Below, piece by piece: positions 15,561-50,496 of a stretch of 64,000 bases of DNA. The stretch comes from a virus: IMG/VR virus record IMGVR_UViG_3300037311_000299, positions 1 through 64,000 of that record. One strand, written 5' to 3'. Made by a program: the position numbers and the translations under genes. How positions within the stretch are numbered: position 1 is the stretch's first letter; each line of letters starts with the position of its first letter. Below the pieces are notes generated by a model. The model was not told where the DNA came from, ran no database searches, and saw only the letters and a program-made list of their open reading frames with translations.

Positions 15561-16754
15561 ATGAGGATACTGCACACTGGAGACATACATCTAGACCAGC
15601 ACTCGCCCCACGAGCCGCAGGAGGCTCTGCTACACGAACTCGCGGGGCACGCGCGAGGCTGCGATCTGGTCATCGTCGCGGGGGACTTGGTGTGCCCTGC
15701 GCACAAGCGCCGGGCGTTCCCTTGGGAGCGCCAAACGCTGCGGAACTTCCTCCACGCGCTCGCGCCGCTCCCCGTGCACATCGTGCGGGGCAACCACGAC
15801 GAACTCGGCGACCTCGCCCACCTGGGGGACATCCCCCACGTCACCGTGCACGAGACGGGCACGGTGAGCTTGGTCGAGACCTCAGCGGGGCAGCTCGTCC
15901 TCGCGGCGGTGCCCTACCTCGACGAGCAGGTGTGGGCCATCGGCGAAGACGTACCTGTGGGCGAGCGGCACGTGCGGCTCGAGCAGACAGTCACGGACTG
16001 GCTGGCGGCCAACCGGGAGGTCATTCCCCGCCTCGGCATCCCCCTGGTGGCGGCCTACCACGGCGATGTGGTGGGCTCGATGGTCCGGATGGGCCAGCCG
16101 AGCATGGGGAGCGAGCCCCGGCTCTCGCTCGAGGCCTTCACCGGGTATGACCTGGTGTGCGCCTCGCACATCCACTTCGCCCAAACCCTCGATCTGCCCA
16201 CCGGCGGCGCCTTCGTCTACGCCGGCTCTCCCTGGCCTCACTCCTTCGGCGAGGAAGGCCAAGGCGGCAAGGGCCCTGCCATCCACACGTGGGACGGGCG
16301 GGGTTTCACCACGACGTGGTGCCGGCTGAGCTACGCGCCGCTGCTCACGCTCGACCTCGAGTACCGGGGCGAGGACGGCGAGGCGGCGCGGCTCTGCTGG
16401 CCTACCGGCGAGGCCTACATGGGCCCCGCCGACCTGGCCAACCTCGCTGCCTCACTGGTGGCGGGCGCCCACGTCCGCCTGCGCGTGACGCTGCCCAGCA
16501 GCGCGCTTCCCACCCTGCACCGCGAAGGCCTGCGGACTGACTTCCTGGCGGCGGGAGCCGCGAGCGTGAAGGTCACGCCCAAGCCAATAGCGGAGCAGCG
16601 GGGGCGCGTCACGGCGGTCCGGGCGCACGAGCGGGCGCCGGTTTTCGAGCAGCTCGAGGTCATGTGGCGGGAAACGCGGTCGGAGCCGGACGACTCCGAC
16701 AGGGCAGCCATGCGCGACATCCTGACCGCCCTCGAGGCGGCGGCAGCGGCATAG
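15561..16754 (+). CDS. sbcD: SbcD/Mre11-family nuclease
   Basis: Metallophosphoesterase motifs LHTGDIHLD, VAGDL, GNHDE and SHIHFAQ. Followed by the sbcC-like gene. Confidence 0.85.
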   Translation: MRILHTGDIHLDQHSPHEPQEALLHELAGHARGCDLVIVAGDLVCPAHKRRAFPWERQTLRNFLHALAPLPVHIVRGNHDELGDLAHLGDIPHVTVHETGTVSLVETSAGQLVLAAVPYLDEQVWAIGEDVPVGERHVRLEQTVTDWLAANREVIPRLGIPLVAAYHGDVVGSMVRMGQPSMGSEPRLSLEAFTGYDLVCASHIHFAQTLDLPTGGAFVYAGSPWPHSFGEEGQGGKGPAIHTWDGRGFTTTWCRLSYAPLLTLDLEYRGEDGEAARLCWPTGEAYMGPADLANLAASLVAGAHVRLRVTLPSSALPTLHREGLRTDFLAAGAASVKVTPKPIAEQRGRVTAVRAHERAPVFEQLEVMWRETRSEPDDSDRAAMRDILTALEAAAAA

Positions 16755-16766
16755 GGGGGAGCAGTC

Positions 16767-19670
16767 ATGCAGCTTCACAAGCTTCGATTTTCGAACCTCG
16801 CCTTTGGCGCGGTCGCCAAGAGCCAGCCCGGCGCGCCCTGGGCTGACAAGCAGCGGGTGGTCGACTTCGACGCGATGCCGCAAGGCATCATCCGCATCGC
16901 CGGCCTCAACGGCACCGGCAAGTCCACCATGCTCTCGCTGAGCGGGCCCGGGACACTCTACGGGCGCGACCCGTCTCAGGGCGACGTCTACGGGCTCGCG
17001 GGGGCGGGGCCGAGCTTTTCCGAGATCGAGTTCTCCATGGCGGGCCACCGCTACTTGGCCCGGGTCGACATGTCCCGGGGACTCAAGAGAGCCCGAGGGA
17101 CGGGCGAGCTGTCGGAAAAGAAGAGCCGCGAGTTCCGGCTCTTCCAGGACGGCGAGCTGCTTGCCCAGGGTGAGGCGGGTTACCGCGACGCCGTCGAGGC
17201 GCTCGTGGGGACCAACGAGGACCTCCTGGCCGTGGCGTACCAGCTCCAGCGCAACGCGGAGCACGACGCCCGGACGCTGACGAGCTTCGCGGCGGCGACC
17301 GCCGACCAGCGCGAGGAGATTCTCCGCCGATACATGGGCCTCGAGGCCATCCAGGTGCTCGTGGACCGAGCCACCGAGGAGGCCAAGACCCTCTCGGCAA
17401 AGGTCGCAGACCTTCGCCCCCAGCTCGAGGCAAGCGATGCGGCCAAGCTGCGGCTCGCGGAGCTCACCGAGCGGCGTCCGCAGGCGGCCCAGGCGGCGGC
17501 GGATGCCAAGCGCGAGCTCCAGGGCGCCACCGCAGCCCTTACGGCTGCCAAGGCCGCCCATGCTGAGGCGGTGGGACGGCTGCAGGCGGCTCAGGCGGCG
17601 AAGCGCCGGGTCGACGAGCTGCTCGCCGAGGAAGCGGCCCGGACGGCTGCGGTGGCTGCGGTGGCTTCCGCCGAGAGTCGCCTCGAGGCGGCCAAGGTCG
17701 ACGTCGAGCGCGCCGAGGCGGCTGTCTCCGATGCTGCTCAGCGCCTGGACCTCGCGCGGGCGGCGTCGCAGGACGTGGCAGCACGGGCGGCTGCGTACGA
17801 CCAAGCACGCTCCGCCCGGGACCGGGCGAAGGCTGCCCGAGACGCGGCAGAGGCCGAGCAGCGAAAGGCTGCCGGCCAAGTCTCAGAAGTGACACGGGGC
17901 TGCACCGACACGCGTGGACGCCTCGCCGCAGCGCGAGACGCGCTCACCGGCGCTGAGGCTGCCAGCGCAGCCGCCGGTGAAGCCCTGGCGGCTGCGGCCT
18001 CGGCAGAAGCCAAGGCATCCACCGAGCTGAAGGGCATCGAGCAACAGGGCCAGCAGCTCGCCGAGCAGCGCCAACCTCTGCAATTGGACCTCGACACCGC
18101 GGCGGAGGACGTCACGTCGGCTCGGCTCGCTGTCAATAACGCCACAGCCAAGCGCGCCCAACTCGAGACTCGCGTTACGCACCTCGAGGCGGAGGTGCAA
18201 CGCCTCACGCGGCAGTCGTCACTCTGCGACGCAGTGCCCTGCCATGGAGCGGGTGAGTACGCCGGCTGCCAGCTTCTGGCCGACGCGGTGCAGGCCCGAG
18301 CGCTCCTCGAGGGCCCCACGGCCAAGCTCGCTGAAGCACAGGTCGACCTGAGCGCGGCCGAGCGGGCAGTGACATCGGCCCAGGCGGCGCTCGACCTGGC
18401 CTTCGAGCGGCAGGCAACCGCGAAGGCGGCGCTGGACGCGGCCAGCGAAGCGGCCGAGCCGCTCCGAGCCGCATATCGCAGGGCGCGCGAGGACCATTCG
18501 CTTACCTGCGCAGCCACCGATCAAGCCAGAATGCACGCGGAAAGCGCCAAAGCGCGGCTTGCTGTCTCTCAGACCACCGTCGCAACCCTCGAGGAGCGGC
18601 TGACCGCCCAGGAAGCGGCAATCACCCAGGGCGAGGCCGTAGCCAGCGCAGCCGCGGCGCGGCTCGCCGATGCCGAGCTCCGGCTCGGAGAGGCCGAGGC
18701 CACGCTCGCAGCCACGCCGGCCCCCACGGGCGACGCAGCGCGGGCCTTCGCCGCGGCCCAAGCTGCGGTGGCGAGCGCCCAGGACAGGCTACGGCAGGCC
18801 CAGGCCTTGCGGGATTCGGCGGCGACCGCGCTCGCGGAGGCCTCCGGGCGTCTCGCGCGGGCTCGGGAAGCGAGCGTCGTCTCGCAGGAGCTCGCCGCGG
18901 CCCAGGCTGCGGCCACCGACACCGGCTTCGCTGACGAGCTTTCACGCCTTGCGACGGCGGTCGGCGGGGCGGAGGCCTTCGAGCGGCAGGCCCAGCAGGC
19001 TTTCGAAGCGGCATCCGCAGAGCTACACCGCCTGGACGGGAGCTGCGCTGAGAACGAGCATCGGATTGCCGAGCTCGCGCCCATCGCGACGAGAGCCGAG
19101 GCGCTCGCCACCCAACACCGGCGCACCGTGCGGCTCCGGGATGACCTGGCGCGCCTCATTCGCCTGCGCATCGAGGCCTCCCTAGAGGAGCTCACGAGCC
19201 GCATCAACGGGCTCCTCGAGCACGTGTCGGCGGGGCGCTTCTCGGTGCGCTTCGAGGTCGAGACGGTCACCCAGGCCGGCAAACCCAAGCCGGCCTACTC
19301 GCAGGTGGTCTTCGACGCCCAGACGAACTCCGACCGGGAAGTCCGCCACTACTCTGGCGGCCAGCAGACCATCGTGAGGGTGGCCACCCAGCTCGGGCTG
19401 ATGCTCTACGCCAACTCGCACCGGGCCATTCCGCTTCAGACGGTGTGGCTCGACGAATTCGATTCGGCACTGGATGCCGATGGCGAGTTCCGGCCGGGTG
19501 TGATGGCGCTCCTGCGGGCCTTCGTAGAGACCATGCGGACCACGGTCGGCGACGTGCGGGTGTTGGTGGTTTCGCACGCGCCGGACTTCGACGCGGACTT
19601 CACCTTCCGCGCCGAGACCATCGCCGTGCGCCCCCTCTCCGAGCCCAGCGCTCTGCTGGAGGCCGCATGA
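16767..19670 (+). CDS. sbcC: SbcC/Rad50-family ATPase
   Basis: 967 aa. Walker A GLNGTGKST, very long Ala/Glu/Arg coiled coil with a central Cys cluster, signature HYSGGQQ, Walker B VWLDEFD. Confidence 0.85.
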   Translation: MQLHKLRFSNLAFGAVAKSQPGAPWADKQRVVDFDAMPQGIIRIAGLNGTGKSTMLSLSGPGTLYGRDPSQGDVYGLAGAGPSFSEIEFSMAGHRYLARVDMSRGLKRARGTGELSEKKSREFRLFQDGELLAQGEAGYRDAVEALVGTNEDLLAVAYQLQRNAEHDARTLTSFAAATADQREEILRRYMGLEAIQVLVDRATEEAKTLSAKVADLRPQLEASDAAKLRLAELTERRPQAAQAAADAKRELQGATAALTAAKAAHAEAVGRLQAAQAAKRRVDELLAEEAARTAAVAAVASAESRLEAAKVDVERAEAAVSDAAQRLDLARAASQDVAARAAAYDQARSARDRAKAARDAAEAEQRKAAGQVSEVTRGCTDTRGRLAAARDALTGAEAASAAAGEALAAAASAEAKASTELKGIEQQGQQLAEQRQPLQLDLDTAAEDVTSARLAVNNATAKRAQLETRVTHLEAEVQRLTRQSSLCDAVPCHGAGEYAGCQLLADAVQARALLEGPTAKLAEAQVDLSAAERAVTSAQAALDLAFERQATAKAALDAASEAAEPLRAAYRRAREDHSLTCAATDQARMHAESAKARLAVSQTTVATLEERLTAQEAAITQGEAVASAAAARLADAELRLGEAEATLAATPAPTGDAARAFAAAQAAVASAQDRLRQAQALRDSAATALAEASGRLARAREASVVSQELAAAQAAATDTGFADELSRLATAVGGAEAFERQAQQAFEAASAELHRLDGSCAENEHRIAELAPIATRAEALATQHRRTVRLRDDLARLIRLRIEASLEELTSRINGLLEHVSAGRFSVRFEVETVTQAGKPKPAYSQVVFDAQTNSDREVRHYSGGQQTIVRVATQLGLMLYANSHRAIPLQTVWLDEFDSALDADGEFRPGVMALLRAFVETMRTTVGDVRVLVVSHAPDFDADFTFRAETIAVRPLSEPSALLEAA

Positions 19671-24469: not shown

Positions 24470-24781
24470 ATGGCTTCGCGAAAGCGGGACCTGCGCCTCT
24501 GCCTTGGGTGCGGCGAGCCGCTCGATCCGGGGCAGCGCTGGTGCAGGGGCACGGATTGCCCGGAACTGGAGCTCGCACGGCTGCAAGAAGCCGGGGCGCG
24601 GGTGGGCGTGGAGCTCCGGGATGGCTTTACGTCAGGACTCCCGCATGGTGGCTGGCGCGCCGTCGGTGCTGACGACGACGGACTGTTGTCGGTGGTCGAA
24701 GCCGGCCCCCGCCGCGGCGCGGTGCTCGCTGCGATCGCCATGGCTTCGAGCGCGGAGCACTGGCCGGCGAGTGCGCCATGA
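24470..24781 (+). CDS. Small zinc-ribbon protein
   Basis: 103 aa. GGAGGA upstream. CLGCG...WCRGTDC. Its stop overlaps the methyltransferase start (ATGA). Confidence 0.5.
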   Translation: MASRKRDLRLCLGCGEPLDPGQRWCRGTDCPELELARLQEAGARVGVELRDGFTSGLPHGGWRAVGADDDGLLSVVEAGPRRGAVLAAIAMASSAEHWPASAP

Positions 24782-26436
24782 CGGCGCGAGTCTACCCGGC
24801 GCTATTTCTTTTCGCTGGACTCGGCGGCGGCGCCCTCGGCTTTGCTCGCGCTAGCGCCCGCGTTCGTGGCGTGGGAGGCCACTTCCGCATCGCTGGCGCG
24901 GTCGATTTCGACCGCGGCGCAGCAGCCGACTTCGAGGCCCTCACCGGCGCCCCGTGCACGGTCGCAGACCTCGCTTCGATGACCCCCGAGGAGCTCCGGG
25001 CCGCCTGCCCCGAGCCCCCGGACGTCGTCTTCACCTCTCCCCCGTGCAAGAGCTTCTCTGGCTGCCTACCCGCTGCCGTGGCGGCGTCCGAGCCCTATCA
25101 GGCGATGGCGTCTCTGGCAGTACGCGGGCTCTGGCTCGCGCTCGAGGCATTCGCCGAGCGCCCTCCCCTGCTCATCCTCATGGAGAACGTCCCGCGGATT
25201 CAGAACCGCGGACGCGAGCTGCTCGACCAGGTGGTGGGCCTTCTCCGGGCCTACGGCTACGTCGCCCGTGAGACCGTTCACGACTGCGGGGAACTCGGAG
25301 GCCTCGGCCAGCGACGGCGGCGCTTCCTCCTCGTCGCCCGTCACGCGAAGGCCGTGCCGAACTTCTGGTTCGAGCCCCCGTCGCGCGGGCTGCGTCCGCT
25401 CGGGCAGGTCTTGGGCGAGCTGCCGGTGCCTTGGCCCAGAAGTGCCGAAGGCGGGCCCATGCACCGCCTGCCGAGGCTCTCGGCACTAAACTGGGTCCGG
25501 CTCGCCCTAGTGCCGCCGGGCGGCGATTGGCGAGACCTCCCGCCGCGGGTGCGGCTCGTCGAGTCGAGGGTCCGCCAGAACGGCGGCTTCGGCGTGGAGG
25601 CCTGGTCAGCGCCTGCCCATGCGGTGCTCGCTGAGGGGACCGTGCACCACACCCGCGCGAGCGTGGCCGATCCCCGTCTGGGATACGGCTCCCGTCGCGG
25701 GACCATGGGCGTCTCCGAGTGGGCGCATCCCGCCGGCACTGTGATCGGGGCCTCGCGCCCTGACAAAGCCGCGGCTGTCGCCGACCCCCGTCTGGGATGC
25801 TCGCCCCGGAACACGGTCCTCGGCGTCTCAGAATGGGACAGCCCCTCCGGTACCGTCATCGCCGCCGCCCAGGCCGACAACGGCGCCTTCAGCGTGGCAG
25901 ACCCCCGGCCCACGTGCGAGGTGCGCGAGGGCGCCTACGGCGTCACCTCCTGGGACCGCCCGAGCACCACGGTCATCGCCGCCGGGAGCATTCACAACGG
26001 GCCCTGGCAGGTGGCCGACCCTCGCGGGCGTGGGCTGCTCCGCGTGATTGGAGACCGCATCGAAGGCCCCGCCGACGAGCTGCGCCGGCTTGACCTCGCG
26101 GACCCAAGGCCGCTCACCGACCCGCCGCTCATCGTGGCCGCCGACGGCACGTGGCACCGGCCCATGACCACCCTCGAGCTCGCGGCGCTTCAGGGGCTCC
26201 CCATCCGGCAGGGAAAGGAGTGGCTCCGCCTCGAGGGCTCGAGCCACAGCGCATGGCGCCAGCGCATCGGCAACGCGGTCCCGCCGCCGACCGCGGAGGC
26301 CATCGCGGAGACAGCGCTTCGGGCGCTCGTCGCCGCCGACCTCGGCGTGTGGGAGCTCGGCGGCGAGGGGGTGTGGGTATCGCCTCCAGAAAATCGGAGA
26401 GAGGACGGCCCCGCCGTCGAAAGGGGAAATTCATGA
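24778..26436 (+). CDS. DNA (cytosine-5) methyltransferase with a repeated target-recognition region
   Basis: 552 aa. Motif I LFAGLGGG, IV TSPPCKSFS, VI ENVPRI, VIII QRRRRFLLV, X GNAVPPP. Four tandem ~37-aa units (GV-x-x-W-x-x-P-x-x-TVI...VADPR) lie between motifs VIII and IX/X. Confidence 0.9.
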   Translation: MTARVYPALFLFAGLGGGALGFARASARVRGVGGHFRIAGAVDFDRGAAADFEALTGAPCTVADLASMTPEELRAACPEPPDVVFTSPPCKSFSGCLPAAVAASEPYQAMASLAVRGLWLALEAFAERPPLLILMENVPRIQNRGRELLDQVVGLLRAYGYVARETVHDCGELGGLGQRRRRFLLVARHAKAVPNFWFEPPSRGLRPLGQVLGELPVPWPRSAEGGPMHRLPRLSALNWVRLALVPPGGDWRDLPPRVRLVESRVRQNGGFGVEAWSAPAHAVLAEGTVHHTRASVADPRLGYGSRRGTMGVSEWAHPAGTVIGASRPDKAAAVADPRLGCSPRNTVLGVSEWDSPSGTVIAAAQADNGAFSVADPRPTCEVREGAYGVTSWDRPSTTVIAAGSIHNGPWQVADPRGRGLLRVIGDRIEGPADELRRLDLADPRPLTDPPLIVAADGTWHRPMTTLELAALQGLPIRQGKEWLRLEGSSHSAWRQRIGNAVPPPTAEAIAETALRALVAADLGVWELGGEGVWVSPPENRREDGPAVERGNS

Positions 26437-41037: not shown

Positions 41038-41598
41038 ATGGAACGTCCCCACCTCGCTTTGCTACTCGACGTCTGCGCGCGCTGGCTCGCCACCGGCAAG
41101 GCGGCGCGGCTCTCGACCCAAGATCAGCGACACGCCGATACGCTCGACCTCGTCCGCACGGGCCTTCTGGAGCGGCGGGATACCTACACCGTGAGGCCCA
41201 CGCAGCAGGGTCTGGCGGTGGCCGCGCACGCGCTCTCCAAGGCTGCGGAGGACTTCGGTGAGTACCCACCTGAGCCCGCAGACAGTGCCACGGGGGACGG
41301 CGCGGTGGCCCGGGGCTATCCGTTCGTGTCCTTCGACTACGGGAGCCCCCTCACGCCGCGCCGCGCGCTCGACCCCGTCGAGGGGATGCCGGACTGGTAC
41401 TGGGTGACGGGTCCGTGCTGGGTGGGGTGCGCCCCGGACAGCAAGACGGCCCCCGTTCGAGTGCCCGCCGGCAAGCGGGCGCGGATCAAGCTGCTCGACG
41501 AGCCCGCGAGTGAGACAGTCGTTAGGTGGTCGGTGGTGTTTCGGCAGGGCCCGCCGTCTCGACGACGACCCGTACCGGCGGAAGCGGCGGCCACATGA
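41038..41598 (+). CDS. Hypothetical protein
   Basis: 186 aa from MERPHLALLLDVCARW, with GGAGG upstream. The last ~25 codons are low complexity. Confidence 0.5.
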   Translation: MERPHLALLLDVCARWLATGKAARLSTQDQRHADTLDLVRTGLLERRDTYTVRPTQQGLAVAAHALSKAAEDFGEYPPEPADSATGDGAVARGYPFVSFDYGSPLTPRRALDPVEGMPDWYWVTGPCWVGCAPDSKTAPVRVPAGKRARIKLLDEPASETVVRWSVVFRQGPPSRRRPVPAEAAAT

Positions 41599-41994
41599 TG
41601 GCCAGCACGGCGTCGATGGCCGCGCGTTGCTCTTCGCTCAGAGCCCCGCGGAGCTTCGCTTCGAGCTCCTCGCACTCGGCGGGTGTGCTGGGCTGGGGAG
41701 TCATCGCGACCTCGGGGGGAATTGGGTAGCGCTCGGGCAAAGGTCCTGAGTGCTGGACCACCAGCATCGCTAGCGGAACGGCTTCAATGAGGCCTGCGAC
41801 GACGGCGAACCGTCCCTGGGTGTCGCAGGAAGGCCGTCCAGGCGGCCGACCGAGGGCGCCGAGCGCTGAGGGGAGAGTGCAGGGCGCGGGCGGGGGAGTC
41901 AAGGGCTTAGCGGTCGATCTGGGCCCAGCGGCCGCTGTTGGTGGCGAGGCGTTCTGCGTAGGCTTGTGGTGACTGGCTCGGAGGAGGCAATCAG

Positions 41995-42195
41995 ATGGCA
42001 ACAACAAGGGAACCCGGCTCAGAGAATGCGGTGGACACGGACCTATCGGCCGAGGTGAAGAACGGCAGGTTTTTGTTGGACGAGTCTGAGTTTCACGCTG
42101 AAACAAAGCGGAAGTTTGAGGAAGCCTACGCTGAAGCAATGGCTCGCGTGGCCGCAAATCAGGCCCGCTCCAACCCGAGTGACAAGTCGCCATAG
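41995..42195 (+). CDS. Small hypothetical protein
   Basis: 66 aa. Strong SD GGAGGAGG 7 nt upstream. Lower-GC region. Confidence 0.4.
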   Translation: MATTREPGSENAVDTDLSAEVKNGRFLLDESEFHAETKRKFEEAYAEAMARVAANQARSNPSDKSP

Positions 42196-42334
42196 GCCGG
42201 GACTCGTTTCGCTCCGTCCGCGCCGCCCAAGAGCTATCACGCCACGCTCGCAAGACCCAAGTGACTCCGTAGCGCCAACCCGCGACCTTTGCACCTTGGG
42301 GCGTTGGTCTTGACGTCACCTCTGGTCTGCGAGC

Positions 42335-43546
42335 ATGCTTGTCGAACGTGTGACACATAGCGGGAGGAGCGGTGTGGCTTTTGTTGATGACTTTCAGCGG
42401 CATGTAGACCAAGTGAAGATGCGTCTTCCCCATGTCCGGGGGGAAGAAAGCACCAAGCACGCCTTGGTTGTACCTCTCTTGCAGGTGCTTGGTTATGATG
42501 TGTTCGACCCTCGAGAAGTTCAACCCGAGTACGTCGCCGACTTCGCAAAGAAGAAGTCTTCGGGCCAGATGGAGAAGATCGACTACGTCGTCTTCCTCAA
42601 CTCCCAGCCTGCGCTGTTCATCGAGTGTAAGTCCACCGACGCCAAGCTCGAAGACCATGACGGGCAGCTTGCCAGGTACTTCAACGCTACCCCGGGAGTG
42701 AAGATCGCTATCCTGACGAACGGAGTTCAGTTCAAGGCGTTCTGCGACCTTCGTCAGCCAAACATGATGGACCCGACTCCATGGCTGGATGTTGACTTGC
42801 TCAACCTCAAGCCGGCCGAGTTCGATGCCTTGAAGCGCTTCCGCAAGGTCGACTTCTCTCCTGAGAGCTTGATCGCTCTGGCGGAGGAGATGGTCTACTA
42901 CAACGCTATGGTGAGCATGATCACGGGGCAGCTCCGTGACCCATCCGAGAGCTTCGTGCGTTTCGTTGCGAGTGAGCTCCCCGGGCTGCCCAGGGTCACT
43001 GCGAAGATCGTAGACAGGCTTCGCCCCATCCTTCAGAAGGCGATCCAGTCAGCCATCGTGGAGCACGTCGCGCGGTCCTTCGCACCCATCATGTCAGAGC
43101 CCCCTGAAGAGCCGAGGCCTGCGTCCGCAGTCCCTGCGCAGGCCGAGTCTGCGCCGCAGGGAGACGCTAGGGAAGGTGTGGTGACCACGGCGGAGGAGAT
43201 ACAGGCGTACCAGCTCATTCGTTCCTGGATTCTTGAAGTTCATCCTGGGGCCTCGGTAGCCTACAAGGACGGAAAGACCTACTTCACCATTAACATGGCC
43301 AACGTGCGCAAGTGGTTCGTCCGCCTGCAAATCCAGAAGGCACCCTATTGGGTCGCGTTGCGGCACCTGACACCCGACCAGTTGGGCCACATGGCCCCTG
43401 GCATGGATCATCTCGACCCGAGCGCATTTGGCGATTCCAGGGTGACACTTCGAAGGATAGAGGACCTCGCGCGGCTGCGCTCCGGCTTCTTGGAAGCCTA
43501 CTCGCGCGAGGCCGAGCGGCGCTCCGATTCGGATGACGCTCAATAG
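42335..43546 (+). CDS. HsdR_N-type (PD-(D/E)xK) restriction-endonuclease-like domain protein
   Basis: 403 aa. EESTKHALVVPLLQVLGY...KIDYVVF...ALFIECKS...QLARYF matches the type I R-subunit N-terminal nuclease-like domain. Uncharacterised C-terminal ~150 aa. Reduced GC. Confidence 0.65.
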   Translation: MLVERVTHSGRSGVAFVDDFQRHVDQVKMRLPHVRGEESTKHALVVPLLQVLGYDVFDPREVQPEYVADFAKKKSSGQMEKIDYVVFLNSQPALFIECKSTDAKLEDHDGQLARYFNATPGVKIAILTNGVQFKAFCDLRQPNMMDPTPWLDVDLLNLKPAEFDALKRFRKVDFSPESLIALAEEMVYYNAMVSMITGQLRDPSESFVRFVASELPGLPRVTAKIVDRLRPILQKAIQSAIVEHVARSFAPIMSEPPEEPRPASAVPAQAESAPQGDAREGVVTTAEEIQAYQLIRSWILEVHPGASVAYKDGKTYFTINMANVRKWFVRLQIQKAPYWVALRHLTPDQLGHMAPGMDHLDPSAFGDSRVTLRRIEDLARLRSGFLEAYSREAERRSDSDDAQ

Positions 43547-43705
43547 CCGACCTGGCGCAAGCCCTAGCCTAAGGTAGCGATGCAGATGCTAGACGGCGAC
43601 GGCAGTCCAGTGGGTGGCTCGCGTCGCAACTAGATTTCTTTCGGGGTACGTCGTGGACCTGGCGAGCGGGGATTTGATTGCCAGAGCCGTAACGAGGGAA
43701 AGAAC

Positions 43706-45346
43706 ATGAACGTGCTGGTTGTGCTGCTTGGGGTAGTAGTGCTCATCCTGCTCGTCGCCTACCTAAATGAGAGGCGGGTCGTTGTTGCGGCTCAGGATCG
43801 CTTGCGAAAGACTGAGGCTGATGCGCGAGAGAAGCTCACCGCTGCGGCATCCGAGATGACCTTTCTGAAATCTTGGGTTGACGAATTGTCCGTTTATCAG
43901 TCCATCATCGACGCGGAAAAGCGGACGCGTGAGATTCTGGATGAAGCCAACGGGCAAGCTACGGAGATACTCGCCACGGCTAGGCAGGACGCTGCGCAAG
44001 TAAAGCAGAAAGTCGAAGCTGTTCTATCGCACGCGCAAGCAGAGTTGGACAAGGTCTCGGGGATGGTTGCTGCGGAGCGGGCCCGTGCGCGAGATGAAGC
44101 AGAGAGAATCGTGAACCAGGCCCTAGAGGAGGCACGACGAGTTGCTGGTTCCGCCTTAGACGCCAAGGAGAATGCCGAGCGCTACACGAAGATCGCGCGG
44201 GCGATGCGAAACGTAATTGAAGGCTACGGCAGCCGATACGTAGTTCCAACGACTGGGCTGGTAGATGAGCTGGCAAATGAATACGGCCACAAGGATTTTG
44301 GCGCTCAGCTCAAGCTGGTTCGCCAGCGACAGAAGGATCTAATCAAGAGTGGCCGAGCCGCTGACTGCAAGTATGTTGAGGACAATCGGAGAACTGCTGC
44401 CGTTGAGTTTGCGCTCGATGCGTTCAACGGCAAAGTTGATAGTATTGTCTCCCGAGTGAAACATGACAATTTAGGAAAGCTCCGGCAAGCTATTCTTGAT
44501 GCGTTCGAATTGGTAAATCGCAACGGCTCGGCATTCAGGGATGTAAGGGTGACTCTTGAGTACCGAAATCTGCGATTGGAGGAGCTTCGCCTTGCTGTTG
44601 GCATTCAAGAGATGAAGTTACGCGAACAGGAGGAGCAGCGAGAGATCCGGGAGAAGATGCGAGAGGAGGAGCGAGCCAAGCGAGAGTTTGAGAAGGCCAT
44701 CAAGGCCGCCGCGAAGGAGGAGAAGGACCTCACGAGAGAGATGGATGCGATGCGCGCCAGGGTTGCCACAGCCACTGAGGCCCAGCGGGCCGAGTACGAG
44801 GCCAAGCTGGCCGTCCTCGAGGCTCGCCTCAAAGAGGCCGAGGAGCGAGAGCGGCGGGCCATCTCGATGGCTCAGCAGACCCGGCGCGGCCACGTCTACG
44901 TCATCTCGAACATCGGCAGCTTTGGCGAGAACGTCTACAAGATAGGCCTCACCCGCCGCCTGGACCCCATCGACCGCGTGAGGGAGCTAGGCGACGCGAG
45001 CGTTCCGTTCCCCTTCGACGTGCATGCGATGATCTTCAGCGAAGACGCCCCTGCGCTCGAGTTCGAGCTCCAAAAGCGCTTCCAGGAGAAGAGCCTCAAT
45101 CTCATCAACTTCCGCAAGGAGTTCTTCGCCGTGCCCATCGCGGAGATCAAAAAAATGCTCGATTCCATGGGGGTGCAAGCCCACTGGACCGAGGCGGCCG
45201 CCGCGCGGGAGTACAGGGAGTCGATCGCGATCCGCGAACGTGGAGAAGTAGCACAAGCGGTGGCTCGACGAGGGCCGATTGCGCCTAGCGAGGATGACGA
45301 GTTGGACTTGGATGCGGAGTTTCCTGAGCTGTTGGCTGCTGGCTAG
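43706..45346 (+). CDS. DUF4041 + T5orf172 (GIY-YIG-related) domain protein with an N-terminal TM helix
   Basis: 546 aa. MNVLVVLLGVVVLILLVAYL, long coiled coils, DUF4041-like middle, C-terminal GHVYVISNIGSFGENVYKIGLTRRLDPIDRV...FPFDVHAMIFS typical of T5orf172. Confidence 0.7.
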   Translation: MNVLVVLLGVVVLILLVAYLNERRVVVAAQDRLRKTEADAREKLTAAASEMTFLKSWVDELSVYQSIIDAEKRTREILDEANGQATEILATARQDAAQVKQKVEAVLSHAQAELDKVSGMVAAERARARDEAERIVNQALEEARRVAGSALDAKENAERYTKIARAMRNVIEGYGSRYVVPTTGLVDELANEYGHKDFGAQLKLVRQRQKDLIKSGRAADCKYVEDNRRTAAVEFALDAFNGKVDSIVSRVKHDNLGKLRQAILDAFELVNRNGSAFRDVRVTLEYRNLRLEELRLAVGIQEMKLREQEEQREIREKMREEERAKREFEKAIKAAAKEEKDLTREMDAMRARVATATEAQRAEYEAKLAVLEARLKEAEERERRAISMAQQTRRGHVYVISNIGSFGENVYKIGLTRRLDPIDRVRELGDASVPFPFDVHAMIFSEDAPALEFELQKRFQEKSLNLINFRKEFFAVPIAEIKKMLDSMGVQAHWTEAAAAREYRESIAIRERGEVAQAVARRGPIAPSEDDELDLDAEFPELLAAG

Positions 45347-45434
45347 TCTGGCCGAAGCCAATCACTGATTACCTAGCCAGAGAGGCTAGTGTTGGCGCCA
45401 GTGCCCTTACAAGTAACTGGAACGGAGGTTGTGA

Positions 45435-45935
45435 GTGAAGGATCAATCTATGAAGTACCTTAGTGCTCTGGCTCAATTTACCGACGAAGTCGATCTCGAC
45501 ACGCTTGACCCCGTCGAGGAATCGGACCGAGACAAGCGAAATCAACGTCACCAGGTGTTAGAGTACATGCGCCAGAAGGGGTGGATAAACTATGAATCCA
45601 TGCTCGGTGGCGGGGGATATGTGAGCATCCGCGCCGAAGGAATTGATACGTTGAATGCGCCGCCCAGCCAAGCCACAACTCAGTCGGTAACCTACAACGT
45701 CCATGGGGTGCATGGACCGGCTCAGTTTGGCAACAACAATGTGCAGAACATTACCTATCGGCAGACGCTGGAGCGGTTGTGCGATGAGATAGAAAAGAGC
45801 GACATGGATGAGGGGGAAAAGACGGAGGCTAAGTCGTACGTTCAGGCCGTTCTGCACAATCCACTCTTAAACACCGTTCTTGGCTCGGCGCTCAGCTTCG
45901 GTGGCGCGGTACTCCAGAAATTAGTGCAAGGCTAG
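45435..45935 (+). CDS. Hypothetical protein (winged-helix-like N-terminus, hydrophobic C-terminal helix)
   Basis: 166 aa. RHQVLEYMRQKGWINY...YVSIRAEGIDTL. C-terminal LLNTVLGSALSFGGAVLQKLV. About 50% GC. Confidence 0.5.
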   Translation: MKDQSMKYLSALAQFTDEVDLDTLDPVEESDRDKRNQRHQVLEYMRQKGWINYESMLGGGGYVSIRAEGIDTLNAPPSQATTQSVTYNVHGVHGPAQFGNNNVQNITYRQTLERLCDEIEKSDMDEGEKTEAKSYVQAVLHNPLLNTVLGSALSFGGAVLQKLVQG

Positions 45936-45988
45936 GTCGGCCATCGTTTGGGTTCGGTGCCGTCCGAGCTCTCCGAGCACGGCCGACC
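45935..45988 (+). terminator. Nested GC stem-loop at the stop codon (GGTCGGCC...GGCCGACC)
   Basis: 8-bp outer stem with an inner GCCGT/ACGGC stem. No U-tract. Lies between convergent cassettes. Confidence 0.35.
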
Positions 45989-46318
45989 GGCACATTCATC
46001 GAACGCCGCATGATACAGCCGCCGCTTGCGCTCGCTGCCGTGCCAGCTCGTCCGTAGACGCGACACACTGTCCACCACCGCCTGGAACGACCGCGCCAGC
46101 CTTCCGAGGAAATGAGGCAGGAACCAACATGCCTGCGCTGGTTGGCCCGACGCGAACAACTGTCCCACCGGCTCTCGTTGTCTTCCCAACCATCAATCCG
46201 GGTCACTGGTTGACAAGCGCAGACCGGCCCGAAGCGATGGGTGGTTAGGCGCAGGATAGGCGCGGCCCGTAGGCGGACCACACTCAATTCAGGCTCCATG
46301 GTTGACGGTGGCCACAAG

Positions 46319-46798
46319 TCACGCGAACCGAATCGGCTTGGAGAATGATCTCACGAAGACTTGGCTGCACTTAGCGGGTTCGATTGGTACCGGCTCTGAC
46401 TTCCGAAGTGCAGAGTAAACTCCGCCTCTATTCAGCGAACTAAATTTAACCTCGTTGCCTGCGCTGTCGAGGCATTTGGCTCCGGATTTGCCCATGGCCT
46501 GGACGTATTCACGCCACTGCTTGTAGCTCAGGAGTGAGCCCGCACGGAGATGTTCTTGTACGCTTGGACTTACACGGAGCATGACAAACCTCGCTGCATC
46601 AAGAGGCACGGCAGTGTGCCAAGTTGGCCACATGGAGGGTATGCCGGTTGAGGTGACTGTCAAGCCGCGGTACCGATCAGACATCAGGTCAGCCCTACGA
46701 GGAGTGCAGCACTTGTAGGGAGATGGGCAAGTCCATGTACCGTCAAACAAATGATACATTTTCCTTGGGTCGCCAAGCCAGCCGCCAGTCCTTGTCAT
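46319..46798 (-). CDS. Hypothetical protein, third gene of the DprA-like/PRTase cassette
   Basis: 159 aa (alternative start at 46759). Overlaps the PRTase gene end by 17-56 nt. No recognisable motif. Cys/Trp-rich N-terminus. Confidence 0.5.
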   Translation of the reverse strand: MTRTGGWLGDPRKMYHLFDGTWTCPSPYKCCTPRRADLMSDRYRGLTVTSTGIPSMWPTWHTAVPLDAARFVMLRVSPSVQEHLRAGSLLSYKQWREYVQAMGKSGAKCLDSAGNEVKFSSLNRGGVYSALRKSEPVPIEPAKCSQVFVRSFSKPIRFA

Positions 46799-47438
46799 CG
46801 AACCAGATTATTTCACTACGGGCAGCCGCGGTTGCTCCCGAGGAATAGTCGGCTGCCACCGTGTGCGTGGCGGTAAGCAGGCGGACATCGCCCTCGTAGC
46901 CGGCCTGCTGGAGGGCTAACAGACACCCCATAGCGGCGGTGCCGTAGGTCAGAACATCGTCTAGAAGGGTTATCGGCAGATCCGGGTTGAGCAATGTTGC
47001 ATCGACGGCGAGCGAATCGCGATGTTCCAGGACAGACGTTCGGTCATTGCGCCCGGCAGCGTGAGACTTAGCAACTGCGGTCCTTCGGGTCAGCAAGGGG
47101 TGAGCGCTTCTCGCGAGCCCCGCCGCCTGAAGACGGACGGCGAGGTCGTACATTGGCCAAGTTTTCCGTTTGGGCGGAAGTGGTGTCACGCTTGATGACG
47201 GAACGGGCACTATTTGACGCCCAGGCCCGATGACATCAGCGAGTTCGTCTGCACTGTCCTTTAGTACGCTGCTGAACCACTCAATAGCCATCACTGTGTT
47301 TCCATCCCCGTCAGTCAGACCGCCGCCTTCCTTGAGAGCGTACAGCAGCTTTTGGAGCCACTTTTCCTCTTGAGTGGCGGCATTGGACTTCGTGTAGTAC
47401 GGAAACACCGAGAACGCTTGGATGGAAAAGCGGCTCAC
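46743..47438 (-). CDS. Phosphoribosyltransferase-like (ComF/PRTase-fold) protein
   Basis: 231 aa. PRPP-binding loop ITLLDDVLTYGTAAMG. GTG at 47438 overlaps the DprA-like stop (GTGA). Confidence 0.7.
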   Translation of the reverse strand: MSRFSIQAFSVFPYYTKSNAATQEEKWLQKLLYALKEGGGLTDGDGNTVMAIEWFSSVLKDSADELADVIGPGRQIVPVPSSSVTPLPPKRKTWPMYDLAVRLQAAGLARSAHPLLTRRTAVAKSHAAGRNDRTSVLEHRDSLAVDATLLNPDLPITLLDDVLTYGTAAMGCLLALQQAGYEGDVRLLTATHTVAADYSSGATAAARSEIIWFDDKDWRLAWRPKENVSFV

Positions 47439-48166
47439 CGGATGGCCTCCAGCACTTCGTCCGTGTTGTCCAAAATCCTCGCCCCGTTCTTCACAAAGCT
47501 CTCTGGCCACTTCAGGTCTCTGTTATCTAGCAAGCTTCTCATCAAGAACAGTGGCCGACCCAAGCTCAAGACTTCTCTCGCTTGTGAGAGCGAGCCGCTG
47601 CCGTCGCCAGCTTCAACAATGACGGAGGCATGAGCGATCCGAGCCATTACGCGGTTGCGTGCTACGAAGTTTGACGGAAACACTCGCGAGCCCGGGGTGA
47701 ACTGGCTAATGAGCAAGTGATGGCGGTAAATCTCCGCTTGAAGCTCGGCATGTGCCGCCGGGTATGCTGTGTCGAGCGGCGTGCCAATCACTGCAATGGT
47801 TCGGCCGCCGGCCTGGAGTGTGGCGGCGTGGGCAGCGAAGTCGATGCCCTTGGCCAGTCCGCTAACAGTTGCGACTCCGGCTTGGGCGAGTTGGCGCGCT
47901 AGTTTTGCGGACCTGCGGACGCCGTCCGCCGACGCGGACCGCGAGCCCACGATTGCAACCAGTGCCGGTGCTCGCAACAGCGTGGTATCGCCCGCGCAGT
48001 AGAGAATTGGAGGCAGCCTCATGAGCTCTGCTGGGAGCACATCCTCAAACGCATCCTCGGCTGACAGAATGCGAACATCTGCTGGTGGCGTGTAGCGGCT
48101 CCTAGACACCATCTCTCGTGGTCTCCACGCATCGCTCGTGTTGGCGGCATCCGCTGCGAGAGCCAT
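47435..48166 (-). CDS. DprA/Smf-like (SLOG-superfamily Rossmann) protein
   Basis: 243 aa. VAIVGSRSAS...SGLAKGIDFAAHAATL...TIAVIGTPLDTAYPAAH...FPSNFVARNRVMA...VIVEAG matches the DprA core. No SAM or C-terminal wHTH extensions. ORF 47435..48367 trimmed to the ATG at 48166. Confidence 0.75.
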   Translation of the reverse strand: MALAADAANTSDAWRPREMVSRSRYTPPADVRILSAEDAFEDVLPAELMRLPPILYCAGDTTLLRAPALVAIVGSRSASADGVRRSAKLARQLAQAGVATVSGLAKGIDFAAHAATLQAGGRTIAVIGTPLDTAYPAAHAELQAEIYRHHLLISQFTPGSRVFPSNFVARNRVMARIAHASVIVEAGDGSGSLSQAREVLSLGRPLFLMRSLLDNRDLKWPESFVKNGARILDNTDEVLEAIR

Positions 48167-48270
48167 AGTCCCACCCCCTGGTGCTAGACGGCGCGTTGTG
48201 CGTGCACCGAGGGTGGATGATATCCAGTTTGGGTCTTGGTACAACCGACGGGGTTCGATGAGGAGCCAGG

Positions 48271-50496
48271 TCAGATCTGAACGACCCGATACCGCGCTAG
48301 CACCTGCGACACGTAGAACGTCGCCGGCCCCGCCGAGGCGAACGTGCCCACGAGCCGTAGAGCCCACCTATCGGCAGTGGCGCCCGCGACCTCGCTCGCG
48401 AGCGTCACGAGCTTCGAGGTTGGCGCGCTGTCGGTGGGGTGCACCCACGTCACCGAACTCGACAAGGACTCCGCAGTCCAGCCGCTCGAGGCGTTGTCGC
48501 AGTCGGTTCGCTGTATGGTGGCCGACATGGCGTCTCCGGCGTCGGTGCCGGTGAGCCACCCGATGACGCGGAAGCCCACCAGGGCCTCGCCCACGCGGTG
48601 CTGCGGGGCCTGGAAGTAGAGCGGCGCGTTGGCGGTCGTGCAGCTCCAGCGGTGCCCGTTGAAGGTCCACCCGCTGCCGGCGGCGTTGCTGTGGTCCATG
48701 TGGACCGTGCGCTCGACGAGCTTGCCGCCGGCGCCGATGAGGTGCAGGTCGGGCACGAGCACCCGAGGCTTGACCGAGAGCGACGTGTCTTCCTGGTTGC
48801 CGTCAGCCTTGGTGAAGCGCAGGTAGTTCGCCGCGGTCGGGTTGGCCGCTGTGCCGAGCGAGAGCTGTCCGGCCTCGGCCCGCCAGAGCCAGTCGTTGGC
48901 GCCCCCGAGCGCGAAGTCCACCACCTCCGAGCCGGCGAGGTCGGTGCTACCGGCGCCGTCGTCCTCGCCGTCGGGGCCATAGAGCCACAGCTCCCGGTGG
49001 GTGCCGGCGATGCGGCGCAGGCGCAGCATGACGGGCTCGACGCCCTGGTCGACGCGGTCCGCGCCGTGGAACAGTGAGACCCGCATGACCGCCCGGCTGC
49101 TCAGCTCGTCCACGGCGAGGCTCGCCGCGGGGGCCGCCGCACCTGCCGATAGCAGGATGTCTGCGCGAGACTCAGGGTGAGGCCTGCGGGTCCGCGCGAG
49201 GTCGGCGAGGGTCTCGGAGACCACCGCGTTCGTGCCGGTGTTCCACTCGAATCGCGCCACCTCGAGGCAGTCGCTGTACGTCGAGTTGTACGTGGCCTCC
49301 GCTGCGATGGTGAGCTGACCCACCATCGCCTCGACGGCTGCGGAGGCGTTGGAGTCCACGGCCAGGACGAAGAGCACGTAGTCGCCAGAAGCCTCGTTGT
49401 GGCTGAAGGCGACCGTGTCGGCCGCGAGGCCTCGCACGACGCGCATGCGTCCCTCGGCGTCGGCCGTGTAGATGAAGCTCCCGGCGGGTAGCGGGTCGAG
49501 CTCGAAGGTTTCGGTGGCTGGGCCCGTGGCGCTGTGCGCGAGGCTCTGCGACCACGCCTCGGTCTCGGCGAGCCCGGGGATGTAGATGGCCGGGCCTGCC
49601 AGGCCCCACTTCAGCACGTTCGAAGCCTCGGTCTCGAGGAACGCCAGGTCGCGCGCCAGCGAGCCGAAGGTCTTGATCGTATTCTGGGCAGCCGTCGAGA
49701 CCGTCCCGTCGAGCACGGTGCCGAGGTACCAGTAGCTGAGATTTCCCTCCGAGTCGGTCTGGGTGGAGAGGTTCGTCGTGGACACCGACAGCCCCTCGAG
49801 GAGAACGAGGTAGGCCGCGGTGCTCGTCGACGGCGTCTCCTGGCCGAAGCTGTGGGCGACGGCCACCGTGACGTTCGTGCCGTTGCTCTTGGCTTGGCCC
49901 TCGACGATGGCCAAGCCTGCGTCGACCGGGTTGACCATCCACACGTGCGCGCGCCGGTACTCGGAGCTGCTGTTGGCCCAGGCGCCCCCGCTGGCTGCGG
50001 TGGCGAGCGTGTTGACGTTGAAGGTCATCGTCCCGTCGCCGTTGGCGGTGACGGTGTCCGGGGCGCCGAGCTCGCCCATCGTGAGCTTGTAGCGCGACAG
50101 GTGTAGCAGGCCGCTGGAACTCGCGACGAAGGTCGGCCGAGCCTGGTAGCGAAAGCCCAGGTGGTAGGTGGTGCCGCTCTGCCGCTTGTAGGGCACCTGG
50201 GTGATGCGCCCCAACACGTCGGAGTCGGCGGTGTTGTAGGACAGAATCCGCCCGGCGGCGGTGCCGCTCGCGGCCGAGGGCGAGGCCACCGCCAGCCGAT
50301 ACACTCCCGAGGAGAGGCTCTCGGTGATGGACACGGGGTCGTCCCCGAAGGTGCCCGGCGTGGGGTACTCGGTGACCACCTTCGCGCGCTGGACGTTTTC
50401 CAGATACTCGAGCACGCGCACCCGCAGGTCGTCCGACCCGACAATCAAGCGGTTGGTGGGGTTGAGTCGGGTCTGGCCAGTTTGGGTGGTCCCCAT
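48271..50496 (-). CDS. Tail fibre / receptor-binding protein (putative)
   Basis: 741 aa, Ser/Thr/Gly/Ala-rich. Last gene of the baseplate block, downstream of the gpI-like gene. Confidence 0.55.
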   Translation of the reverse strand: MGTTQTGQTRLNPTNRLIVGSDDLRVRVLEYLENVQRAKVVTEYPTPGTFGDDPVSITESLSSGVYRLAVASPSAASGTAAGRILSYNTADSDVLGRITQVPYKRQSGTTYHLGFRYQARPTFVASSSGLLHLSRYKLTMGELGAPDTVTANGDGTMTFNVNTLATAASGGAWANSSSEYRRAHVWMVNPVDAGLAIVEGQAKSNGTNVTVAVAHSFGQETPSTSTAAYLVLLEGLSVSTTNLSTQTDSEGNLSYWYLGTVLDGTVSTAAQNTIKTFGSLARDLAFLETEASNVLKWGLAGPAIYIPGLAETEAWSQSLAHSATGPATETFELDPLPAGSFIYTADAEGRMRVVRGLAADTVAFSHNEASGDYVLFVLAVDSNASAAVEAMVGQLTIAAEATYNSTYSDCLEVARFEWNTGTNAVVSETLADLARTRRPHPESRADILLSAGAAAPAASLAVDELSSRAVMRVSLFHGADRVDQGVEPVMLRLRRIAGTHRELWLYGPDGEDDGAGSTDLAGSEVVDFALGGANDWLWRAEAGQLSLGTAANPTAANYLRFTKADGNQEDTSLSVKPRVLVPDLHLIGAGGKLVERTVHMDHSNAAGSGWTFNGHRWSCTTANAPLYFQAPQHRVGEALVGFRVIGWLTGTDAGDAMSATIQRTDCDNASSGWTAESLSSSVTWVHPTDSAPTSKLVTLASEVAGATADRWALRLVGTFASAGPATFYVSQVLARYRVVQI

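Follow-up and report, generated by a model that had tools for sequence, protein, structure and literature searches.

Two adjacent minus-strand genes, at 47435–48166 and 46743–47438 of the window (the whole 64,000-nt stretch analysed, positions 1 to 64,000 of the IMG/VR record IMGVR_UViG_3300037311_000299), very probably form a two-gene toxin-antitoxin (TA) anti-phage module of the ShosTA type, also termed Shosta or DprA-PPRT, which is carried as cargo of a prophage defence island and does not include the 159-codon open reading frame (ORF) overlapping its downstream end. The pair is a divergent but recognisable copy of ShosTA in its short form. What the locus holds is a divergent representative of a two-gene system already known, and no new trio: the first-pass annotation had considered that the three ORFs together might be new, which does not hold since the pair is already catalogued as ShosTA or DprA-PPRT. 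The features of the locus are the following.

About 42000–48270, no strand assigned: reduced-GC cargo island, with a GC content of 0.53–0.64 inside and 0.68–0.73 outside.
42335–43546: gene of an HSDR_N protein, within the reduced-GC island.
43706–45346: PD-Lambda-1 (PADLOC, 6e-117).
46319–46798, minus strand: orphan 159-codon ORF, overlapping the 3' end of shosT by 56 nt.
46743–47438, minus strand: shosT, 231-aa single-domain phosphoribosyltransferase (PRTase), predicted toxin, with a GTG start within a GTGA overlap.
47435–48166, minus strand: shosA, 243-aa DprA-like predicted antitoxin, with matches in Pfam, PADLOC and the PDB sequences.
48170–48178, minus strand: Shine-Dalgarno-like GGGGGTGGG, read from the sequence, with 3 nt between it and the start codon (ATG) of shosA.

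The three minus-strand ORFs stand in the ORF list at the coordinates initially reported, the third overlapping the 3' end of the PRTase gene. The reduced-GC setting noted at the same time was also found, the GC content dropping from about 0.70 to 0.55–0.64 over roughly 42000–48250; the island is flanked by the minus-strand tail module on one side and by a plus-strand high-GC module on the other. About 1.4 kb separate PD-Lambda-1 from the shosT stop codon. Upstream of shosA, a gene encoding a 741-aa protein comes after baseplate J-like and I-like genes and stops at 48271, leaving the gap of 104 nt reported initially before the shosA ATG at 48166; this gap contains the Shine-Dalgarno-like motif. 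The 741-aa protein had been labelled a tail fibre, a label that reflects only the position of its gene; the protein has no match in Pfam, PHROG or the PDB. The 104-nt gap was negative in a scan for sigma-70-like promoters, which is uninformative for a host with 70% GC, and the scan for terminators and promoters gave nothing above shuffled sequences. There was no Rfam match over 41500–48500 and no phage match in a DNA search with 45900–48300. The tRNA search found none, and the repeat scan returned short repeats only, at the level of chance.

The identity of ShosA is supported by a match to the Pfam family DNA_processg_A (PF02481) with an E-value of 6.7e-54, far beyond chance. This match spans residues 47–232 of 243 and thus covers the Rossmann core only, as proposed in the first-pass annotation. 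About 46 residues precede the core, and both the SAM domain and the C-terminal winged helix-turn-helix (wHTH) are absent. The PADLOC model of ShosA (PDLC03961) matches with an E-value of 1.1e-64 and 213 of its 303 positions covered. Among the PDB sequences, the best match is the competence DprA of Streptococcus pneumoniae (3uqz, 1.8e-33), and E. coli ShosA (9vzo) is matched with 3e-19. The three arginines that bind ssDNA (sites according to PMC12961424) align with R76 (in GSR), R170 (in ARNR) and R197 (in QAR). The 243-aa start is supported by the relatives of equal length L002 and L012, which align from residue 1. A longer version of 310 aa, starting at a GTG at 48367, was rejected, since it overlaps the tail gene by 97 nt, has a GC3 of only 0.55, and the relatives are 225–243 aa long.

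The shosA stop codon and the GTG start of shosT share a 4-nt GTGA overlap at 47438–47435, as had been noticed initially, and by this arrangement the two genes are predicted to be translationally coupled. The PADLOC model of ShosT (PDLC03962) matches the product with an E-value of 1.6e-14. Its AlphaFold model (pLDDT 89.1) has a PRTase fold, for which Foldseek retrieved from the PDB ComF of Helicobacter pylori as best match (7p0h, 1.5e-5), E. coli ShosT (8zvd, 7.7e-5, TMq 0.50), and next OPRT, XPRT and APRT. The PRPP loop LLDDVLTYGTA is intact, as the first-pass annotation stated, and D160, D161 and G166 are invariant across the family. Again, the start is supported by relatives of equal length, which align with the 231-aa protein from residue 1. 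Sequence searches with ShosT gave no match to E. coli ShosT among the PDB sequences and none in the phage records, and a scan of IMG/VR found no relatives. When profiles were compared with hhalign, the window PRTase clade matched the PRTases that phages Mana, PhiBP82.2 and Riah encode with 92% probability (E 5.5e-7); the core aligns, the N- and C-terminal parts do not. The earlier reference to a reported antiphage DprA and PRTase pair from P2-like hotspots was right, and homology to that pair is supported by the PADLOC models and by this comparison.

Fifteen loci besides the window were fetched. A DprA gene directly followed by a PRTase gene was found in 11 fetched loci of metagenomic or genomic origin (L002, L003, L005, L006, L012, L013, L014, L015–L017 and the P0004 contig), with an overlap of 1–4 nt or a short gap between the two, and the PRTase partners also match the ShosT model. 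The pair recurs in all related loci that were recovered with the A-then-T gene order, and also in the three temperate phages Mana, PhiBP82.2 and Riah; the pair of phage Mana (Peduoviridae) matches the same PADLOC ShosA and ShosT models with 3e-97 and 1e-41. The short DprA family comprises 1714 proteins at E ≤ 1e-40, and in the relatives of the window protein the partner is a PRTase and the setting is mobile. The toxin is conserved far less than the antitoxin; in L012, the identity with the window is 76% for DprA and 61% for the PRTase. The DNA on the 3' side of the PRTase gene varies among loci. A convergent gene is the commonest neighbour, starting 58 nt past the PRTase gene in L012 and likewise convergent in L006, L013, L014 and L015–17; elsewhere the record ends or unrelated ORFs follow. 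Only the DprA and PRTase pair is conserved among the relatives, with no further component.

ShosTA, or DprA-PPRT, has been described as an antiphage system (PMC9122126; bioRxiv 10.1101/2022.05.11.491447). The P2-type DprA-PPRT pairs, or short-form Shosta, of phages Mana and PhiBP82.2 of Burkholderia and Riah of Pseudomonas (PMC9122126) resemble the window in the order of the genes, in the short single-domain PRTase (201–231 aa), and in the organisation as two tightly linked genes that are temperate-phage cargo and match the same HMMs. The resemblance is very divergent, with about 43% identity for DprA and 27% over 139 residues for the PRTase relative to Mana. The DprA-like protein is also shorter in the window (243 aa) than in the P2-type phages (282–311 aa), and the module lies after the tail module in DNA of a host with about 70% GC, whereas the P2 hotspot lies beside cos. 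As in E. coli ShosTA (APEC O1 and KTE181; 8ZVA–8ZVD, 9VZO), the antitoxin is DprA-like and has the three arginines that bind ssDNA, and the aspartates of the PRPP loop, D331 and D332, required for toxicity of E. coli ShosT, correspond to D160 and D161. Unlike the window protein, E. coli ShosT has 424 residues with an N-terminal HAD-like pyrophosphatase domain, and the SAM domain (residues 1–94, PMC12961424) and extra C-terminal helix of E. coli ShosA are both missing from the window antitoxin. The two toxins have no similarity detectable by the PDB sequence search. Since ShosT is a single-domain protein of 231 aa and no HAD-like sequence was found anywhere in the window, the pair is of the short rather than the E. 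coli long form, and the absence of the SAM and pyrophosphatase domains is common to the window and the phage-borne P2-type pairs. PsyrTA, or RqlHI (bioRxiv 10.1101/2022.05.11.491447), also combines a DprA-like antitoxin with a PRTase-domain toxin. The PADLOC PsyrA model matches ShosA (4.5e-33) far more weakly than the ShosA model does, and the PsyrT models do not match the window toxin at all. PsyrT, or RqlH, is a large fusion with a RecQ-like helicase.

The same two folds are found in competence DprA and ComFC, which act on incoming ssDNA in natural transformation, and the pair could conceivably be a phage DNA-processing or recombination module, loading RecA on ssDNA, or a pure addiction module without anti-phage function. 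The ranking of the pneumococcal competence DprA above E. coli ShosA among the PDB sequences and that of H. pylori ComF as top structural match of the PRTase are consistent with such a role, as is the original description of ShosTA as a TA pair, to which bioRxiv 10.1101/2022.05.11.491447 refers by citation. This reading is nevertheless judged quite unlikely. ShosA scores 165.5 bits with the NCBIfam dprA equivalog (TIGR00732), below the cut-off of 191.15, and lacks the SAM domain and wHTH of canonical DprA. These results, together with the association of its relatives with PRTases in mobile contexts, also argue against a canonical housekeeping dprA, the alternative raised in the first-pass annotation. 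ShosT has no cysteine in its N-terminal 50 residues, the region in which ComF proteins carry a zinc finger. No competence genes lie near the pair, which is instead translationally coupled and located in a prophage-borne low-GC cargo island by PD-Lambda-1, outside the replication and recombination module. Finally, homologous pairs borne by phages protect against T7 and lambda (PMC9122126).

Whether the ORF at 46319–46798 belongs to the module was considered in the light of its sequence, coding properties and distribution. Part of the initial claim stands, as the frame is open over 159 codons; its length is not clearly beyond chance, since 110 of 2000 shuffles of 45936–46800 contained an ORF of 159 codons or more (5.5%, p ≈ 0.055). 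In addition, the GC content is flat over the codon positions (0.51/0.54/0.58), and the codon score is −0.09, as compared to +0.05 to +0.23 in real genes of the island. No match was found in Pfam (also at E ≤ 10), PADLOC, PHROG, NCBIfam or the PDB sequences. Among 5.8 billion clusters, the ORF retrieved only itself, as an 87-aa JGI call, and an exhaustive phmmer search of 1.84 billion representatives returned only itself and P0009. The latter was rejected as a homologue, the match being one of 32 residues in a repetitive surface protein, added up over six repeats. Two further candidates were discarded: the ORF has no similarity to the HAD gene that occupies the slot after the PRTase gene in L007, and is thus not a degenerate HAD hydrolase, nor has it any to gp53 of phage Mana, which also overlaps the PRTase 3' end. 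The survey for homologues beside DprA and PRTase pairs, suggested at the outset, yielded none in the 15 fetched loci and does not support the proposal of an extra component. The third ORF is probably no component of the system and may not be a gene.

If the locus were a three-gene variant of ShosTA, with the 159-aa or 87-aa product acting as a regulator or effector peculiar to this lineage and linked to shosT in translation, this would account for the common orientation, the 56-nt overlap and the long open frame, whose codon score is the least negative among the six frames there. Two gene callers annotate something at this place, and phage Mana has an annotated 62-aa ORF that overlaps the PRTase 3' end by 50 nt. 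Such a variant is highly improbable, given the lack of any match other than itself and the repeat artefact, the dissimilarity to Mana gp53, the absence of the ORF from the closest relatives, such as L012 with its convergent gene, and the flat GC profile, chance-level length and pLDDT of 37.7 of an AlphaFold single-sequence run. An overlap of 56 nt is also atypical of coupled genes, that of the real pair being 4 nt. That the ORF is a real orphan cargo gene with no relation to the pair, such as one for a small anti-defence or superinfection-exclusion protein, would be in keeping with the abundance of orphans in prophage cargo islands, with the JGI call of the last 87 codons only, for which a GAGG motif lies 6 nt upstream of the ATG, and with some helices modelled in residues 78–104 (pLDDT about 53). 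This reading is unlikely in view of the flat GC, the negative codon score, which for the 87-codon part (−0.043) is no better than that of the antisense frame (−0.037), and the absence of homologues among the 1.84 billion representatives. There is a slight chance that one prophage lineage has recruited, as a third ShosTA component, a real protein of de novo origin or fast evolution, encoded by all 159 codons or by the last 87; a modulator of the SAM-less ShosA or of the pyrophosphatase-less ShosT would be an example. Most likely, the ORF arose by chance or is an orphan peculiar to the strain, lying in unconserved DNA between two cargo cassettes.

With the two-gene ShosTA module as the preferred reading, a mechanism can be proposed from work on homologues (PMC11961720, PMC12961424, PMC9122126). 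The mechanism had been given as unknown in the first-pass annotation, but E. coli ShosTA is the subject of two structural and biochemical studies (PMC11961720, PMC12961424). Toxicity, rescue by the antitoxin and protection against phages have been demonstrated in E. coli homologues only (PMC9122126, PMC11961720, PMC12961424), and a physiological acceptor substrate is established for no ShosT (PMC11961720). By analogy with the E. coli system, ShosT would bind PRPP and its PRTase activity would disturb purine/nucleotide metabolism, so that the infected cell would suffer replication stress, form filaments, and die or cease to grow. As a type IV antitoxin, ShosA would not bind the toxin and would instead offset the damage through the binding of ssDNA and RecA. 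The toxin may be released when shut-off of host expression by the phage depletes a labile ShosA, or when phage ssDNA and replication proteins titrate ShosA off RecA. E. coli ShosA requires its SAM domain for stability (PMC12961424); as the window antitoxin lacks it, stability, trigger and neutralisation may differ in detail from those in E. coli.

The value of these results lies in the correct annotation of the cassette as a Shosta system, which PADLOC-type tools would call automatically and which should therefore not be followed up as a novel system of three genes. The locus also documents a divergent and rarely sampled clade of short ShosT in high-GC prophages, probably myxobacterial-like. 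The wide recurrence of a minimal Rossmann-only ShosA with a PRTase-only ShosT points to an accessory role for the SAM and pyrophosphatase domains that were studied in E. coli, and this short-form clade, devoid of two domains that are important in E. coli, may follow a different stability or trigger logic.

The cassette consists of two translationally coupled genes, encoding a DprA-like protein and a phosphoribosyltransferase (PRTase), and a third ORF:

47435–48367, minus strand, DprA-like ORF (shosA), 243 aa counted from the ATG at 48166
46743–47510, minus strand, PRTase ORF (shosT), 231 aa counted from the GTG at 47438
46319–46798, minus strand, third ORF (ORF3), 159 aa

The stop codon of the 741-aa upstream gene lies at 48271, leaving a 104-nt gap to the shosA ATG at 48166, which is preceded by GGGGGTGGG. 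A GTGA overlap holds both the stop codon of shosA and the start codon of shosT; at its 3′ end, shosT shares 56 nt with ORF3. The GC content drops from about 0.70 to 0.53–0.64 across roughly 42000–48250. Coordinates, gap, overlap and GC were re-derived, and the first-pass annotation had described them accurately. Its "tail fibre" label for the 741-aa gene agrees with the position after tail genes (baseplate-wedge, phrog_219, and tail-protein, phrog_5726), but the protein has no match in Pfam, PHROG or PDB, and the name is based on position only.

The shosA product matches Pfam DNA_processg_A (6.7e-54) and the PADLOC ShosA model PDLC03961 (1.1e-64), and obtains 165.5 bits on the NCBIfam dprA equivalog, below the cut-off of 191.15. 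Its PDB matches include S. pneumoniae DprA (1.8e-33) and E. coli ShosA (9vzo, 3e-19). The Rossmann core is the sole part present. Binding of ssDNA requires three arginines, R52/R143/R170 in H. pylori DprA and R139/R234/R261 in ShosA (PMC12961424), with which R76, R170 and R197 of the window's protein align; the numbering offset was inferred from the chain alignment. The short DprA family comprises 1714 proteins at E ≤ 1e-40. The relatives do not carry a competence-type, canonical dprA among housekeeping genes, as their DprA genes are paired with a PRTase in mobile contexts.

The window's PRTase has no Pfam match and matches the PADLOC ShosT model PDLC03962 with 1.6e-14. Its detectable family is small, with seven proteins of 228–239 aa that are 42–62% identical. 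Only seven toxin relatives were retrieved by the word-indexed search because the PRTase evolves much faster than the short DprA. Since conservation in the family spans the full length of the proteins, both termini included, the start codon is fixed as the GTG at 47438. An AlphaFold model calculated from the seven-protein alignment was confident (pLDDT 89.1, pTM 0.89). The nearest solved structure is H. pylori ComF (1.5e-5), followed by E. coli ShosT 8zvd and 8zvc (about 8e-5, TMq 0.50 and 0.41) and then by ordinary type-I PRTases. The PRPP loop TLLDDVL-x-x-G is invariant across the family; at the equivalent positions, D331A/D332A abolishes the toxicity of E. coli ShosT (PMC11961720, PMC12961424).

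A DprA and PRTase pair from a P2 hotspot protects against T7 and lambda (Rousset et al., PMC9122126) and was treated as the ShosTA toxin-antitoxin system by Millman et al. (bioRxiv 10.1101/2022.05.11.491447). The first-pass annotation had pointed to this pair as "DprA-PPRT", and its relation to the window's genes was borne out by PADLOC models and profile comparison. By tblastn, the window's DprA matched 40 phage records. Burkholderia phage Mana (Peduoviridae) carries a DprA gene (282 aa) and then a PRTase gene (225 aa), whose products match the same two models, PDLC03961 and PDLC03962, at 3.3e-97 and 1.2e-41, respectively. The same two-gene arrangement is found in Burkholderia phage PhiBP82.2 and Pseudomonas phage Riah. 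The PRTases of the window and of Mana share only 27% identity over 139 residues in pairwise alignment. Profile-profile comparison of their clades gave a 92% probability (E 5.5e-7) over 96 columns that include the vPiPsS, His and DDVLT-G motifs. The PADLOC, phage and profile-profile matches therefore place the pair as a divergent short-form Shosta member. As judged from sequence and predicted structure, it is a putative new and divergent representative of a two-gene defence system that is already known and has been studied mechanistically, and the proposal that the whole trio is new is not supported, as the pair matches catalogued Shosta models.

The DprA→PRTase order recurs across relatives, with a 1–4 nt overlap or a short gap. 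Identities to the window are 76% (DprA) and 61% (PRTase) in the related loci L002/L012, 69–77% and 55–56% in L003/L013, and 58% and 31% in Nannocystis sp. SCPEA4 (L014). L005, L006 and the P0004 contig have the same order. In L015–L017, with 61% DprA identity, the partner is invisible to tblastn, yet it proves to be a PRTase, carries VLVDDIVSTGG and matches ShosT at 2e-9. The antitoxin is consistently much better conserved than the toxin with respect to the window (L002, L012, L013, L014, L015; for example, 76% versus 61%, 58% versus 31%, and 61% versus undetectable by BLAST), a pattern suggestive of rapid change in the toxin, or of exchanged partners, among short-form Shosta systems. The pair in L013 (1–4753; 69% DprA identity) also adjoins phage baseplate genes (Baseplate_J), and the ShosTA cassette may insert recurrently at the edge of the tail module.

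Other loci depart from this layout. L004 and L009 have the reversed order, toxin first, and a longer DprA. The "85-aa gene" between PRTase and DprA in L004 (2593–3515) is no third gene: it is the SAM-like N-terminus of the DprA, read in a different frame owing to a frameshift or a miscall. The PRTase genes of L007 (6001–7236, Myxococcales MAG) and L009 (6001–7685) share 86% protein and 87% DNA identity; the DNA similarity does not extend beyond the genes, and their partners are different. A SAM-containing DprA follows in L009. In L007, the next gene encodes a separate HAD hydrolase (Pfam HAD_2, 1e-18), and the PRTase has no DprA within 6 kb; the hydrolase resembles a split-off form of the HAD-like pyrophosphatase domain that E. 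coli ShosT carries as a fusion.

The first-pass annotation had considered ORF3 as an extra component of the pair, which was not supported: no fetched relative contains a homologue and the coding signals are weak. Searches of ORF3 against Pfam (relaxed to E ≤ 10), PADLOC, PHROGs, NCBIfam and PDB sequences gave no match. Among 5.8 billion clustered proteins, its sole match is an 87-aa JGI call at the same locus. An exhaustive phmmer search of 1.84 billion representatives added only P0009, a repetitive 1030-aa protein whose 32-residue similarity, summed over six repeats, is regarded as spurious. With tblastn and tblastx, neither ORF3 nor the whole of 45300–46800 matched the fetched loci past the PRTase C-terminus, except L001, the window's own sequence. 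Downstream of the PRTase, a convergent gene is found at 4 nt (L006), 8 nt (L015–L017), 43 nt (L014), 58 nt (L012), 73 nt (phage Riah) or 294 nt (L003, L013); PhiBP82.2 has its genome end, and the P0004 contig an unrelated co-oriented gene after a 299-nt gap. In Mana (L008 6185–6373), the annotated 62-aa hypothetical gp53 likewise shares 50 nt with the 3′ end of its PRTase gene; it is unrelated in sequence to ORF3 and matches no PADLOC model.

GC by codon position is 0.51/0.54/0.58 in ORF3 versus 0.64/0.52/0.66 in shosA and 0.63/0.49/0.63 in shosT. With a codon log-likelihood model trained on genes of the island, ORF3 scores −0.09 and the five real island genes, tested leave-one-out, +0.05 to +0.23; among the six frames at this position, that of ORF3 is the least negative. 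Shuffling the 865-nt region yields an ORF of 159 codons or more in 5.5% of cases. The single-sequence AlphaFold model is unstructured (pLDDT 37.7), which is weak evidence taken alone. Between the convergent 166-aa gene and shosT (45936–46742, about 800 nt), there is no convincing coding signal in any frame, no Rfam match, and no terminator- or promoter-like site above shuffle expectation. It is rather doubtful that some part of ORF3 is a translated orphan gene, and a role as a functional ShosTA component is highly improbable.

The reduced-GC island contains a second known defence gene, of PD-Lambda-1, and two good coding ORFs (42335–43546 and 45435–45935) that may be further cargo or defence genes (first three entries below). 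Elsewhere in the window are typical prophage or defence-related accessory genes (last three entries):

43706–45346, plus strand, PD-Lambda-1 match, 546 aa (PADLOC 6.4e-117; Pfam DUF4041/SNIPE plus T5orf172/MUG113)
42335–43546, plus strand, HSDR_N protein, 403 aa, N-terminal type I restriction R domain only
45435–45935, plus strand, 166-aa protein matching only unknown-function PHROGs (phrog_16834, 1e-8)
277–1500, minus strand, ParB_N-N6/N4 DNA methylase fusion
15561–19670, plus strand, Metallophos plus SMC_N pair (SbcCD-like)
24778–26436, plus strand, C-5 cytosine methylase

The window's pair has the two folds, the catalytic and ssDNA-binding residues, translational coupling, conserved pairing and a defence-island context. 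By analogy with E. coli ShosTA, its ShosT would bind PRPP and its PRTase activity would perturb purine metabolism, leading to genome duplication, filamentation and death; ShosA would not bind ShosT and would counter the damage by binding ssDNA and RecA. The triggers proposed in E. coli are shut-off by T7 Gp0.7 together with instability of ShosA, or competition of phage ssDNA for the ShosA–RecA interaction (PMC11961720, PMC12961424). Unlike E. coli ShosT, the window's ShosT lacks the HAD-like pyrophosphatase domain, which in E. coli makes only a marginal contribution to toxicity (R56A, PMC11961720). Unlike E. coli ShosA, the window's ShosA lacks the SAM domain, which in E. coli is required for protein stability (PMC12961424). 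Because of these missing domains, the E. coli conclusions transfer to the window's pair within limits. The minimal architecture, with neither SAM nor pyrophosphatase domain, is common to the phage-borne pairs and the sampled metagenomic relatives, and its recurrence suggests that both domains are accessory.
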